A stretch of 64,000 nt of DNA, taken from Chiloscyllium plagiosum. Its lineage: Eukaryota. The stretch covers positions 15,679,190 through 15,743,189 of the forward strand of contig NC_057748.1 in NCBI RefSeq assembly GCF_004010195.1, in the 5' to 3' direction. Shown here in pieces: positions 6,405 through 57,562 of the stretch. The notes beneath the pieces were generated by a model that had not been told where the DNA came from, ran no database searches, and saw only the letters and a list, made by a program, of their open reading frames with translations. Position 1 is the stretch's first letter; the number at the start of each line of letters is the position of its first letter. Position numbers and translations under genes: made by a program.

Positions 6405-6588
6405 CGTGTGGTGCTGGAAAAGCACAGCAGGTCAGGCAACATCTGAGGAGCAGGAGAGTCAACGTTTCAGGTATAAGTTCTTCATCAGTACGCTCCTACT
6501 CTTCGGATGCTGCCAGCCCACTGTGCTTTTCCAGCACCAGAGTTTTCAACTCTGACTCTCTAGCATCTGCAGTCCTCACTTTTTCCTT
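6405..6588. mobile_element. PLE family-1 mini-element, hairpin form
   Basis: Minus arm ending in cttcatcag (hammerhead core), followed by an inverted arm. Confidence 0.75.
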
Positions 6589-7191
6589 GAAATGTGCACT
6601 TACTGCAGTGATCTGTGACCCTAATGAGTCCCAATGCCTCATTTTTATGCTGTCACAGTGCTGTTTCGAGCATCAATGTGTTCACTTCATATGGTAATAT
6701 GTTGCCAATGATGAACTCGATTCTGTCGCTATGTTTACGTTCTGTCATTGCAAGTTGCCTAACCACATCCTACAGTCTCGATATGTTCACTTTTTGTAGT
6801 ATTGTGCCACCTTGGGGGAACCTGCAGCCTCAATATATTGATTTCTCAAGTAATATAAGAAAACCGGAGCAAGTATTGCCATGTTCCACTCTACAATTGC
6901 TGTGGTGATGTTGTTGTAATGCACCATCTGTCCCAATCTGTTTACTTACTGCAATAATATTTTTCTGTATGATGCTTGCTATGACCGGAGTACATAAACT
7001 ATGCAATAAGAAACAGAAACAGACCATTCAGCCCAACTGTCCTGTTATTTATACTCCAGATGTGCTTTCTTCTATTCCACATGCCTCATTGAAACTTTCC
7101 AGCATGCCTTTCTATTCCCTTTTCCCTCATATAGTCACCTAATTTCCTTTCGAAAGCATCTAAACTATATTTGCCTCAACTACTTCCTATG

Positions 7192-7298
7192 GAGAAAGTG
7201 AGGACATATTCTATGTTTCTGATGAAGAGCTTATAATCGAAACGTCAACTCTCCTGCTCCTCAGATGCTGCCTGACCGCTGTGTTTTTTAACTCAATC
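7192..7298 (+). mobile_element. PLE family-1 mini-element with hammerhead motif
   Basis: CTGATGAAGAGCTTATAATCGAAACGTC; flanking direct repeat acttcctatg (7182-7191, 7299-7308). Confidence 0.7.
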
Positions 7299-9039
7299 AC
7301 TTCCTATGACTTCCAAATTCAATATACTCGCTGAATGAAGAGGTTTTGCCTTATTCCCCAAATGGTGTCTTTACTTGCAGTGATGTTGTCTTTCGATGAT
7401 GCACCCTGCAGCTTTTGTACTTTTACTTACTGTAATCGATATCTTTGTTGCTTCAGTATATCAGGAAACTTAGACATTTAGATGCAGTCTTTCATATTCT
7501 GTAACCATGTGTAGCTGCAGTACCTTTACTTAATTTAGTAATTTTTTGAAATAAAATATCCCATTTAGTCTTAGCTTTCCAGTTTTTGCATTTCCACATA
7601 GACCAAGTATGGTTATGTTCTCCAGTAATCTTTTAACCTAACTCAGCCAGCAGAGTTAATATCTTATGGTGTTTGCCACAATGTCTTGTCCATTTAATTA
7701 CTCCAGTTACATATTATGATGATGGCAGTTCTATAGACACAATATGTTTTCTGACTCCTGTAAGGTGTTACAATGATGTTACCTCCACCCTCAGTCCGTT
7801 TACTTGCTGTGGTAAGGTATTGCTATGATGCATCATCTATCAGTGTTCATTTTAGTTACTGGAGTAACATGTTTGTTATGATGCTGTTGTTAGCTCAAGG
7901 TTTACTGCCCATGTTGCCATGATTCACCTTGAGTTTATTTTCTGCTGCAGTTATTTGTGGTCATAAATCAGCCTGTTGCCTCAGTAGGTTTACATGTCTC
8001 AGTAACGCAAAACAGTGATGCACATTCTAGTCTCTAAATTTAATTCCTACATGTACGGTTAAGATTCTCCCTACTTCCAACAGTAACACATAGCTATGAG
8101 GAATACTGTAGCCTCAGTACTCAGAATTAATTTGACTATACAGCACAGAAACAGGCTATTCAGCCCATCCATTGTATGTTGTTCATACTCCATATGGGTC
8201 TCCTCTCAATCAACCTAGCTCACCTCAGCTTGTGAGGATTTCTTTCTACATCTTTCTCTTTCATGTGGCCGGCTAGTTTCCTTCTGAAAACACCTAAGCT
8301 CTTGCTGTGACCACATTCTGACCACTTTCTAAGTGAAAATAGACGTCTCTTTTTAGCCAGTCAATGCATTTACCTACTGCAGTATTCAGTATACTGTACT
8401 TGGTGAACGCTACAGTCTTGGTAGGTTTAGTTACTGTAGTAATGTAATGCTGTCTTGCATCAAATAACATCAGTATGGATACTTACTGAAGTAAAACCTA
8501 TTATAGCAATAATTTAATGTGACATACCCAACAATATTTGTGTGATAATTTATTGAAGTAATGTGTTAATATAAAGCATGTAGCCTCAATCTGCCTACTT
8601 ACTATAATAAGGTGTTGCCACAATGCAGACTATAGCCTCAGCATTTACTTACTCTTGTGCTGTATTGCTGTGATGCATCTTATCATCTTATTTATTGTAC
8701 GAGTACTTCAAAAATTGCTGGAGACTTGTGAATTGGATTCTTGTTTGACTTCACCCTTGAGACTATGTTAGTTTTGCACCTTGAATCGCTGCCAAGGAGT
8801 ATTGATAATGGTGTGACAGGGTCGATGCAGCCTCAAGTATCTCGAGGACATCTCACTCAGTTGTCAAACAAGTTAACTGCAGTGTGCTGTAAACAACTGA
8901 AAATTCAACTCCATTAAGGCATATTTCACTGAGGATAACATTAGGAAGTTACTAAAATGATGCCAGGCAGTCGAAAGTAACTGATAGTGTTTGCCTATGC
9001 ACTTCTTCACAGAACACTCCTGAAAGACCAGTCAGATGT

Positions 9040-9230
9040 AAAGATGACCAGCAGAAGCTGTTAGACCAGGTTGTTATGAAATGTTTGGGTCGACCGGAAA
9101 ACAAGAAATTGAGGCAAATTCACCATGCAATCACAAAACGGAAGTGGCAGTGAATTTCACTGTAACACCCGGGATCCCATGGACCGATGCAGGGAAGAAG
9201 TCTAATGATCTTACCAGAGCATGGAAGGTA
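9040..9230 (+). mobile_element. Second Myb/SANT-like (Harbinger accessory) relic
   Basis: EVAVNFT....PW....KKSNDLTRAWK|gtaggt resembles W.EVA..VN.....RTW.QCRKKFNDL followed by a donor site. Confidence 0.4.
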
Positions 9231-55059: not shown

Positions 55060-55340
55060 TACAGTGTGCCCAACAAGTCCAACTGACCCTCCAAAGAGTA
55101 ACCCACCCAAAGCCTTACCCTACATTTACCCCCAACAATGCACCTAAACTGCACATCCCTGAACACTATGGGGCAATTTAGCTCAGCCAATTCACCTAAC
55201 CTGCACACCTTTGGATTGTGGGAGGAAACCCACAGGGAGAATACGCAAACTCCATGCAGACAGTTGCCCGAGGCTAGATTCGAACCCAGGTCCCTGGCGC
55301 TGTGAGGCAGCAGTGCTAACCACTGCGCCACCATGCCACC
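55060..55340 (-). mobile_element. HE1-type SINE
   Basis: Reverse-complement ggtggcatggtggcgcagtggttagc...gggttcgaatc. Confidence 0.88.
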
Positions 55341-56050
55341 CCAGTCATTAGCTACAAAGCACTTTGAGATTTCTGACTGCCATGAAAGACACCACAAAAA
55401 TGTAAGCTTTCCTTCCTCAATTCTTTCCCCCTCTTTTCCTCCTCCCCATCCCCCCTTCCTTAACCACAACATTGACCTGAACCTCATTGGCCCTCTTATT
55501 CAACATAGAAAGGAATGTCTACTCTTTACTTTGACAATGCCTTTTCCAAATACTGTTCCTTTTCTTGTTCACAAAATTACCAGCAAGACCCAGGTCAGTG
55601 CCAGTGATAATTAAAATCTGAGCATCATGACGATTGGGTTTTCAGATTTTTGAGGCGTGCCTTTCATCTTTTGCAATAGAGCTTTGACTGAAAACCACAA
55701 TTCTTCATGGTGGACAACTTTATTCTATAATGAGTTGGGCTGAAGGAATTCCTTTTTGATATTGAGAAGTGTAGCAAACTACTGCCATGTTAGTGACATC
55801 CCTACAATAAATTTGAGAAAAAAAAACTCACCTAAACTTAAGTAGTTCATCTTGGTGAAAATTTGTGACATTCTCTTTTAAGATGCGGCCCACATTTGTG
55901 TTGAAATGAAAGGTATTACTGAGCTGATTGGATATTCATTCTCTCAATGACACTCACTATCTCCGTTGCAGCACTGTTTTGGATGCAGGGGGTTTAACGT
56001 ATGATGTGTTGATGCTGTGGGTTCTAACATTTTGCTTTTTGATGCCACAG

Positions 56051-56176
56051 AGCCATTCAGTGCAGATGTCTGGGTGATGATGTTCGTAATGCTCCTGATT
56101 GTCTCTGCTGTCGCAGTGTTCGTCTTTGAGTACTTCAGCCCTGTGGGATACAACCGGTGTCTGGCTGATGGAAGGG
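56051..56176 (+). CDS. GRIN2B: GluN2B-like exon (pre-M1/M1)
   Basis: ccacag acceptor, G|gtaagc donor; 126 bp; [42 protein letters not shown] (2B-diagnostic ADVW and YNRCLADGR). Confidence 0.96.
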
Positions 56177-57294
56177 GTAAGCTGCTGTATTCGTGCCATT
56201 GATCTCTCAGCCAACCTCTTATTCTATATATAAAACATCTTACAGCTGGAATTGAATAGAATGCTTGCTGTAACCCAATTACAGAGCAGCAGTAAACAAT
56301 TGAGCTTGCTGCCTCACTTTAACAGATTTTACCTGAAGCAAGGGATCTGACTCTGTTGAAATCTATATCGCTCTCCAAATTTGGCTATCAAACTTCATCA
56401 GTTAAGTTCCAACCTGTGTGCCTTACTTACACTTGTATATCTTTTTTTCACACACTTTATCCATCCAATTTCTTTTCTTCACTTATGGGACATGGATTTC
56501 GCTGGCTAGTCAGCATTGTATTGCCCACCCCTAGTTGCCCTTGAGAAAGTGGGGGTGAGCTGCCTTCTTGAACTGCTGCAGTTCACCTGCTGTAGGTTGA
56601 CTCATAATGGGAGCTCCAGAACTTTGACCTAGCAACAGTGAAGGAACAGCAATATATTTCCAAGTCAGGATGGTGAGTGGCTTGGAGAGAAACTTATCGG
56701 GTGGTAATATTCCTATGTAGCTGCTGCCCTTGACCTTCTAGATGGAAGTGGTTGTGGGTTTGGAAGGTGCTGTCTAAGGATCTTTGGTGAACTTCTGTAG
56801 TGCACCTTCTAGATAGTACATGCATCGGTGACAGAATCCTTTTGATCTTTTGATCAGGGTGGTGCTATAATCTTTCAAATAAATTAATTGTATAGGTCCC
56901 CATCCTGAACCTTCAGATTGTATTCCAGTCTGTAACTCACACCTAAGTTTCTATTACTCTCTAGATAACATCAATTGAATTTGATTTTGGGTTGCTTCCA
57001 GTTACATGTTATTTTTATTATAATCCACACAAAACCCCCAACCAATCATTTGTTGTTACAATTGTGTGGTCTTATAAGCTATGCCTTTACATCTAGCATA
57101 AATAAAAGGGATCATGTGACATGTTCTGGAGTTAGACTGGGAGGTTCATTAGAGATCAAAGGATAGCTGAAATAGTTTTACTGGGAAGAACGTGCAAGGC
57201 GTATTTACTTGGAGACAATGGCAGCATTGACTGAGTTCAAAATCGGTAAGTTCTGGGTCTCCCAAAGTCCCAGAAATGTGTTGAAGGTTGTACA

Positions 57295-57562
57295 AAGTCA
57301 GAAGTCACATGACACCATGTTATAGTCCAACAGGTTTATTTGAAATCACAAGCTTTCGGAGCGCTGCTCCTTCATCAGCTGAACTTCCAACTTTGTCCAC
57401 ACCAGTCCAACACTGGCACCTCCACATCATGTTTATCTGAAGGTCGTACACAGGGAGAAAGTGAGGACTGCAGATGCTGGAGATCAGGTAGAGAGTGCAG
57501 TGCTGGAAAAGCACGGCAGGTCAGACAGCATCTGAGGAGCAGGAGAATCGACATTTCAGGCA
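57295..57562 (-). mobile_element. Adjacent PLE mini-elements: family 5 (57295-57430) and family 1 (57452-57562)
   Basis: Reverse complement CTGATGA-A-GGAGC-AGC-GCTCC-GAAA-GCTT at ~57350-57378; homology to 32890-33082 and 48985-49116. Confidence 0.78.

Follow-up and report, generated by a model that had tools for sequence, protein, structure and literature searches.

Short copies of a Penelope-like element in Chiloscyllium plagiosum share a 5′ start at the hammerhead motif

What sets the 5′ ends of the short repeats scattered through one stretch of shark DNA is the question raised by a 64,000-nucleotide segment of the Chiloscyllium plagiosum genome (assembly GCF_004010195.1, contig NC_057748.1, forward-strand positions 15,679,190 to 15,743,189; hereafter the window, to which all coordinates refer). 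The window opens with a longer element, here called the parent (1-1177), and the first-pass annotation had noticed ten short copies of its 3′ terminus, at least six of them with an end near a hammerhead ribozyme motif. We lean, by a small measure, to the following answer: the repeats are decayed end-pieces of 90-130 nt of a Penelope-like retroelement, likely made when reverse transcriptase (RT) ran off the 5′ end of an RNA that began just before the hammerhead. Their overall layout is ordinary for the Penelope class and already known, and the sharp 5′ start is the one feature of interest.

The whole parent element is an inverted pair with arms joined near 510. It carries the following features:

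1-510, minus strand: parent inverted arm, a GIY-YIG endonuclease coding piece plus 3′ untranslated region (UTR), truncated within the hammerhead by the edge of the window
511-1177, plus strand: parent direct arm, comprising the linker between RT and endonuclease (EN) with a cysteine motif, the endonuclease end, 3′ UTR, hammerhead and tail, with an assembly gap at 654-767
1049-1084, plus strand: minimal type I hammerhead, with core 1053-1059, a 4-bp stem II at 1061-1072 and GAAA at 1073-1076

The two arms match each other (1-300 against inverted 768-1067, 96% identical by BLASTN), and their coding pieces are overall 68-89% identical to protein P0001, the RT itself lying outside the window: the inverted arm matches residues 359-485 at 68-70% (tblastn), and the direct arm matches residues 278-324 at 89% and 441-484 at 71%. 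The protein closest to the parent element is labelled Chiloscyllium punctatum. P0001 holds RT motifs, a CX4CxxC linker and GIY-YIG, its Pfam matches to GIY-YIG and RVT_1 being weak and below cut-off, while the parent pieces of the window alone gave no Pfam match. At E≤1e-20 it has 91 long relatives, the majority of which carry a precomputed RT domain; a comparison of their N-termini with the stubs gave no credible match (5 of 98 weak, best E 0.03). Judged from these similarities, the parent is an EN-bearing (EN+) Penelope-like element, with a predicted RT plus a C-terminal GIY-YIG endonuclease. Its linker motif, C-x4-C-x2, is interrupted by the gap at 654 and is complete in P0001, and a CX2-5CxxC motif is present in 80 of 92 relatives. 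This motif in the RT-EN linker is a mark of Neptune (PMC8557442; the papers cited here and below are used through the available parts of their texts), and Nematis likewise has a zinc-finger-like linker motif. From the linker motif the clade is likely Neptune, and the annotated origin of the copies, as mobilised end-pieces of a GIY-YIG and RT element with a Neptune-type linker, agrees with the P0001 identity.

All ten named loci match parent 1045-1177 (BLASTN, E 5e-35 to 3e-6, 75-93% identity), as annotated. A profile search found 13 strong arms at these loci (E≤4e-20), or 14 when a 15-nt tail-only stub at 7192 is counted, and the same search of the reversed window gave one match (E=0.64). In the list below, starts are given relative to the hammerhead core.

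6403-6588, foldback: minus arm from 6490 (hammerhead start, short end) and plus arm 6490-6588 (start about +32 to +35, tail end); no clear duplication
7192-7291, foldback: 15-nt inverted tail stub, then a plus arm from the hammerhead start; duplication 7182-7191/7299-7308, 10 bp, or 17 bp with 2 mismatches when extended
20299-20394, minus strand: short-end copy in which the hammerhead core is intact; exact 15-bp duplication 20284-20298/20395-20409
30080-30212, minus strand: tail-end copy, start 3 nt before the core; no clear duplication
42226-42422, foldback: minus arm with tail (start about +16) and plus arm with short end (start about +4 to +5); duplication 42212-42225/42423-42436, 14 bp, exact, CTGTTCTATTACTG
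43305-43398, minus strand: short-end copy, start 3 nt before the core; duplication 43293-43304/43399-43410, 12 bp, 1 mismatch
46245-46369, minus strand: tail-end copy, start 4 nt before the core; duplication 46233-46244/46370-46381, 12 bp, 1 mismatch
48985-49187, foldback: tail-bearing minus arm that begins at 49118, 3 nt before the core, and short-end plus arm (start about +24 to +28); duplication 48968-48984/49188-49204, 17 bp, 1 mismatch
49454-49544, plus strand: short-end copy, start 3-4 nt before the core; duplication 49442-49453/49545-49556, 12 bp, 1 mismatch
57452-57565, minus strand: tail-end copy, start inside stem II (about +13 to +15); no duplication

The copies cover 1339 bp, or 2.1% of the window, at a density of ten loci in 64 kb. 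Their mean identity to one another is 85%, and 29 of 93 CpG positions depart from the expected base, compared with 55 of 818 other positions; this is CpG-type decay, in a pattern as under neutral decay.

We read the 5′ starts by hand relative to C3 of the hammerhead (position 1053) in the 13 arms, leaving out the tail stub. Eight arms start at -4 to -1 from this base and the others at about +5, +15, +16, +28 and +35. Counted by locus, eight of the ten have an arm starting 0-4 nt before the core, as do five of the six single-arm copies, so that the annotated figure of at least six stands, and none of the ten loci extends upstream past the shared start. In simulations with uniform endpoints such a concentration was reached in 0 of 200,000 draws for two wide ranges and at a frequency of 0.0003 for the narrowest range. 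The start is not confined to one version of the sequence: copies with different loop, stem I and tail variants have it too, and two other Penelope-like families in the window apparently start at their own core, as read by eye and without a parent. The same landmark in sibling subfamilies, and apparently in two other families, points to a recurring mechanism and not to one master copy. In the parent, an AATAAA hexamer on the antisense strand (1046-1051) spans the shared start. A 3′ splice site as the 5′ boundary was considered and rejected, the nearest CAG lying at 1033-1035, 17 nt before the core, and an exact 23-base pattern found no locus in metagenome contigs.

Four public runs, two of DNA as contigs (from two organisms) and two of RNA, were aligned to parent 768-1260. 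Among the best 18 of 1230 rows of loose ends, the largest was the one before 1049, with 873 and 954 contigs and mostly unique flanks; since 1049 is the top loose end in both DNA runs, and mostly with unique flanks, the sharp start is genome-wide. Position 1177, the 3′ end of the parent, was the top 3′ loose end in both DNA runs. Flank agreement was 0.33 at 1049 and 0.36-0.37 at the true 3′ end 1177, compared with 0.70-0.75 at 1084 and 1086, where siblings diverge. This peak, together with the simulations, upholds the earlier argument that a shared endpoint is not the product of random truncation. Among the best 15 of 98 joints, exact head-to-tail joints from 1177 to 1049 were the most frequent (17 and 21 contigs).

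It would be natural to suppose that the ribozyme sets these ends by cutting, as the first-pass annotation did. By standard hammerhead numbering we take the cut to fall between 1080 and 1081. The shared start lies about 31 nt upstream of this site, and self-cleavage thus does not set it. The motif itself is modest: core letters and the 4-bp stem II are intact in the parent and in copy 20299 only; 75% of cells are paired, against 7-41% in slid controls, although shuffles were not clearly exceeded; and stem I is weak, one of its four pairs (6:39) holding in 3 of 9 sequences. Rfam gave no match at its gathering score, in a weak scan that also missed other repeats of the window, and RNAalifold on 9 decayed copies did not recover the hammerhead fold. 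By its sequence the parent motif is nevertheless a predicted ribozyme of the minimal type described in the available part of PMC4209133.

The retrozyme label, under which self-cleaved monomers circularise and are then retrotransposed, fails on the same measurement. A cut between 1080 and 1081 would give copies that start after the core; most start about 31 nt earlier, at 1049-1050, and keep the whole core, so the endpoints contradict it, even if one arm (the plus arm at 48985) could start at the cut site. A type I hammerhead is present and exact tandem joints do exist, but they are rare, at 17 and 21 contigs beside 873 and 954 free 5′ ends, and a tandem is seen at none of the ten window loci. 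Moreover, a circular template would not stop at 1049, and the full motif is kept only by the parent and copy 20299. Retrozymes have been found in one chondrichthyan and have been tied to pseudo-long terminal repeats (pseudo-LTRs). With boundaries off the cut site, a minimal hammerhead and no tandem array in the window, we hold this explanation to be very improbable and have dropped the label.

The outer ends tell a second part of the story. Target-site duplications flank seven of the ten loci (10, 15, 14, 12, 12, 17 and 12 bp, with 0-1 mismatch), just as the first reading of the sequence had it down to the perfect pair at 42212/42423, and about 2000 random places reach such scores in 0.05-1.3% of cases. 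Loci 6405, 30082 and 57452 showed no credible duplication, in a wider search as well. The duplications are not AT-rich (57.6% vs 58.1%). At the 3′ junctions of 42226, 48985, 49454, 43305 and 7192, the first 1-3 bases of the duplication are often the element's next bases, which, read by eye without a chance count, suggests short priming matches. Four loci (6405, 7192, 42226 and 48985) are head-to-head foldbacks, the hairpins of the earlier description, and six are single arms. A family of miniature inverted-repeat transposable elements (MITEs) derived from a DNA transposon comes to mind, four of the ten loci being short and palindromic. Six have no inverted arm, however, and in the foldbacks the arms are unequal and the centres variable; the duplications, at 10-17 bp, have no fixed length, and the sequence is the end of an RT and GIY-YIG element. 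Arms, duplications and origin refute a MITE, whatever label a library may carry, and we find the idea scarcely credible.

The 3′ ends are of two kinds, about 40 nt apart, giving arms of about 90 nt (short) or about 130 nt (tail). Seven of the 14 arms are short, one of them only about 77 nt, and seven have the tail. Each of the four foldbacks has one of each kind. What had been described as a unit of about 95-200 bp is therefore an arm of about 90 or about 130 nt, the 200-bp forms being head-to-head pairs of arms. This layout, with two kinds of 3′ end, inverted arms and duplications, is the one published for ordinary Penelope insertions. A separate non-autonomous family is unproven. A loose-end peak at 1133 was rejected as a clean 3′ end, as the parent and its siblings differ by indels there.

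These observations can be accommodated by the following scheme. The endonuclease would nick both target strands, and RT would start at one of two sites inside the RNA, 90 or 130 nt in, both steps being taken from work on PAc, the Poseidon element of Anolis. RT would then likely run off the RNA 5′ end, predicted just before the hammerhead, which may be where transcription starts, at an initiator-like motif of the pseudo-LTR. In a foldback, each target strand would prime one cDNA, one per start site, and the two would be joined head to head; the rare head-to-tail dimers could arise if RT, on reaching the 5′ end, switched to a new template. The ribozyme would mark the position of the start without cutting there. 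In vitro, the length of PAc products tracked the template 5′ end, uncleaved RNA was the main substrate, and ribozyme mutants left the product unchanged; the tail is traced in that work to two internal RT start sites, both target strands being cut and extended (PMC11167929). The presence of one 3′ end of each kind in the foldbacks matches the 30-40 bp tail at one end of Penelope-like insertions (PMC8557442) and the two RT starts of PAc (PMC11167929), and counts for run-off. Moreover, Penelope of D. virilis has an internal promoter in its pseudo-LTR, and the pseudo-LTRs of A. vaga contain Inr-like motifs.

The same start could also arise if RT on a long template stalled or was released at the front edge of the hammerhead, through RNA structure, a bound protein or an intermediate nicked at ATT. 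The start falls on the 5′ strand of stem I, 5′-ATT-3′ is the preferred cutting site of PAc, whose ribozyme needs the protein (PMC11167929), and joints from upstream positions to 1049 exist. On the other hand, RT moving 3′ to 5′ would melt the hammerhead before it reached 1049. Folding immediately upstream is weak (-6.4 kcal/mol for 960-1060), stem I is poor, with pair 6:39 in 3 of 9, and the other families do not start at ATT. PAc products were also longer on templates extended upstream of its hammerhead. We regard such a stall as improbable.

Run-off at an RNA 5′ end has its own difficulties, and the RNA data do not remove them. One of the two RNA runs gave no reads, so that all figures come from the other, a fragmented poly(A) single-cell library that is a weak test for RNA ends (2308 reads aligned). 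Depth rises about tenfold at the hammerhead, from 117 at 1023-1039 to 1112 at 1057-1073, on both strands, and 767 of 846 reads at 1088 (about 90%) carry the letter of the short copies and not that of the long parent. The A at 1049 is the +1 base of a match to the initiator pattern YYANWYY, one of 7 such matches in 410 nt; TCAKTY and BBCABW are stricter initiator patterns. Several points weigh against run-off from this base. Five of the 13 arms begin further downstream than the shared start. Automatic local alignment extends five arms 8-29 nt further upstream; at 43305 and 46245 the extension is the target-site duplication, and at 30082, 57452 and 7192 it is pyrimidine-rich flank or junction, which we read as chance. 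Copy 20299 possibly starts at -11 with a 4-nt deletion. In the DNA contigs the loose-end consensus before 1049 ends in CCTC, and some of these ends extend to about -8 or come from long siblings whose UTR has diverged. The fragmented RNA library shows no pile of read starts or ends, and 95% of its 2308 reads continue into unrelated sequence, with both orientations present, a picture that suggests read-through from host transcription. As for the initiator, its match is post hoc and weak (about 2% by chance for the exact base), the two stricter patterns fail in the parent, no fitting downstream promoter element was seen there by eye, and none of three clean junctions has an extra cap-derived G. 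Lastly, the D. virilis start lies about 120 nt upstream of its hammerhead (46 + 75 nt).

The same RNA figures bear on whether the short copies are dedicated mini-elements resembling short interspersed nuclear elements (SINEs), transcribed from their first base, remobilised in trans and divided into subfamilies of their own. The tenfold rise in depth and the short-copy letter in about 90% of reads at 1088 would be expected of them, as would the lack of upstream extension at all ten loci and the head-to-tail units, and non-autonomous Penelope derivatives are known from the literature. Yet the landmark is common to several subfamilies and families, while the loose-end consensus and joints such as 978 to 1049 indicate long siblings for the majority type; copy length and layout vary as in ordinary insertions, and no discrete short RNA was seen in the one fragmented poly(A) run. 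A search for a SINE head found none derived from tRNA, 5S or 7SL for RNA polymerase III, the head being colinear with the parent pseudo-LTR, and Rfam, a weak scan here, found nothing. As the sole explanation we think mini-elements unlikely, but such masters are compatible with run-off and may be additional to it.

Run-off at the RNA 5′ end admits a bolder version, which we offer tentatively and would not expect to hold in full: an RNA polymerase II initiator would lie inside the first strand of the hammerhead, RT would start 90-130 nt further downstream, and each run-off stub would be a self-transcribing, ribozyme-headed, SINE-like parasite arising from several Penelope families. If this were true, a parasite repeatedly reborn in this way would fill about 2% of the DNA here and would map the 5′ end of the transposition RNA. 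Even apart from it, a very large set of insertions, sharply bounded at one 5′ and two 3′ positions, records the limits of the template in vivo. The sharp start argues against templates defined by cleavage and bears on how Penelope elements replicate and on what their hammerhead does. It also accounts for a repeat that makes up 2.1% of the window and is liable to be mislabelled as a MITE or a SINE.

The window holds further repeats of related kinds. A second Penelope-like mini family is represented by foldbacks at 32892-33082 and 57295-57437, each with a 13-bp duplication with 1 mismatch; one arm starts at the CTGATGA core, and only the other has an extension of about 40 nt. Copy 57452 abuts an insertion of this second family. 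Older diverged relatives with CTGAGGA or CTGAAGA cores lie at 15706-15906, 23401-23516, 28146-28190, 32475-32543, 43922-43959, 47999-48081 and 52528-52610; five of the profile matches open at the core (model positions 4-6), and there are no clear duplications. A hexamer microsatellite (28095-28152) abuts a truncated copy of the third family. A longer inverted Penelope-like insertion at 19638-20471 has a 14-bp duplication and an endonuclease-like frame at 19749-20129 (no Pfam match). Copy 20299 is inserted in this other element, precisely at the hammerhead-like core, and that core was the target duplicated on insertion. Another inverted insertion, at 13328-14027, has a 16-bp duplication, a central assembly gap and CTGAGGA hammerhead-like motifs at 13439 (minus strand) and 13986 (plus strand), and the hammerhead does not delimit its arms. 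Copy 43305 is inserted in a repeat at 43109-43689 that matches 52899-53403 and that we take to be the 3′ end of a CR1/L2-type long interspersed nuclear element. An abundant repeat of about 300 bp, at 18887-19186 and about ten other places, is presumably a tRNA-derived shark SINE, and a short tandem array lies at 26768-26930. A ligand-gated ion channel exon at 58311-58673 (Pfam Lig_chan, E 9e-22), which we assume to be NMDA-receptor-like, indicates that the copies probably lie in introns of an ion-channel gene.

Neither the sharp start nor this shark family is described in the available parts of the literature compared here, which further includes PMC2377424, PMC6765202 and bioRxiv 443036; Dfam, Repbase and the chondrichthyan supplements of the bioRxiv retrozyme paper stand outside the comparison. 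Penelope-like elements are reported to have expanded in the whale shark. In metazoans, solo minimal hammerheads of Penelope-like elements are mostly single and have been ascribed to truncated elements, some occurring in opposite pairs 100-700 bp apart (PMC4209133). They share with the copies described here the bulged base before stem II and the palindromic remnant of stem III, but the available part of that paper gives no analysis of endpoints or duplications and names no shark. Non-LTR retrozymes (PMC7229834, bioRxiv 10.64898/2026.07.22.740005) are likewise non-coding, with a type I hammerhead, kinship to pseudo-LTRs and dispersed monomers; they are, however, tandem units processed by cleavage, whereas here the units are dispersed, single or inverted, with ends off the cut site. 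PAc (PMC11167929) has in common with our family two 3′ ends that bracket a tail downstream of the hammerhead and a reaction for which cleavage is not needed, although it belongs to another clade and its main text, in the part available, reports no sharp genomic 5′ end. Insertions of EN-bearing Penelope-like elements comprise a 5′-truncated copy, an adjacent inverted copy and an optional 30-40 bp tail (PMC8557442, PMC3846280). The head-to-head arms, the tail on one arm only and a parent with RT, linker and GIY-YIG are the same here, and the duplications of 10-17 bp are of similar size to the published 8-10 bp. Where truncation in the published insertions is variable, most copies in this window are 90-130 nt long and begin at one and the same 5′ start.

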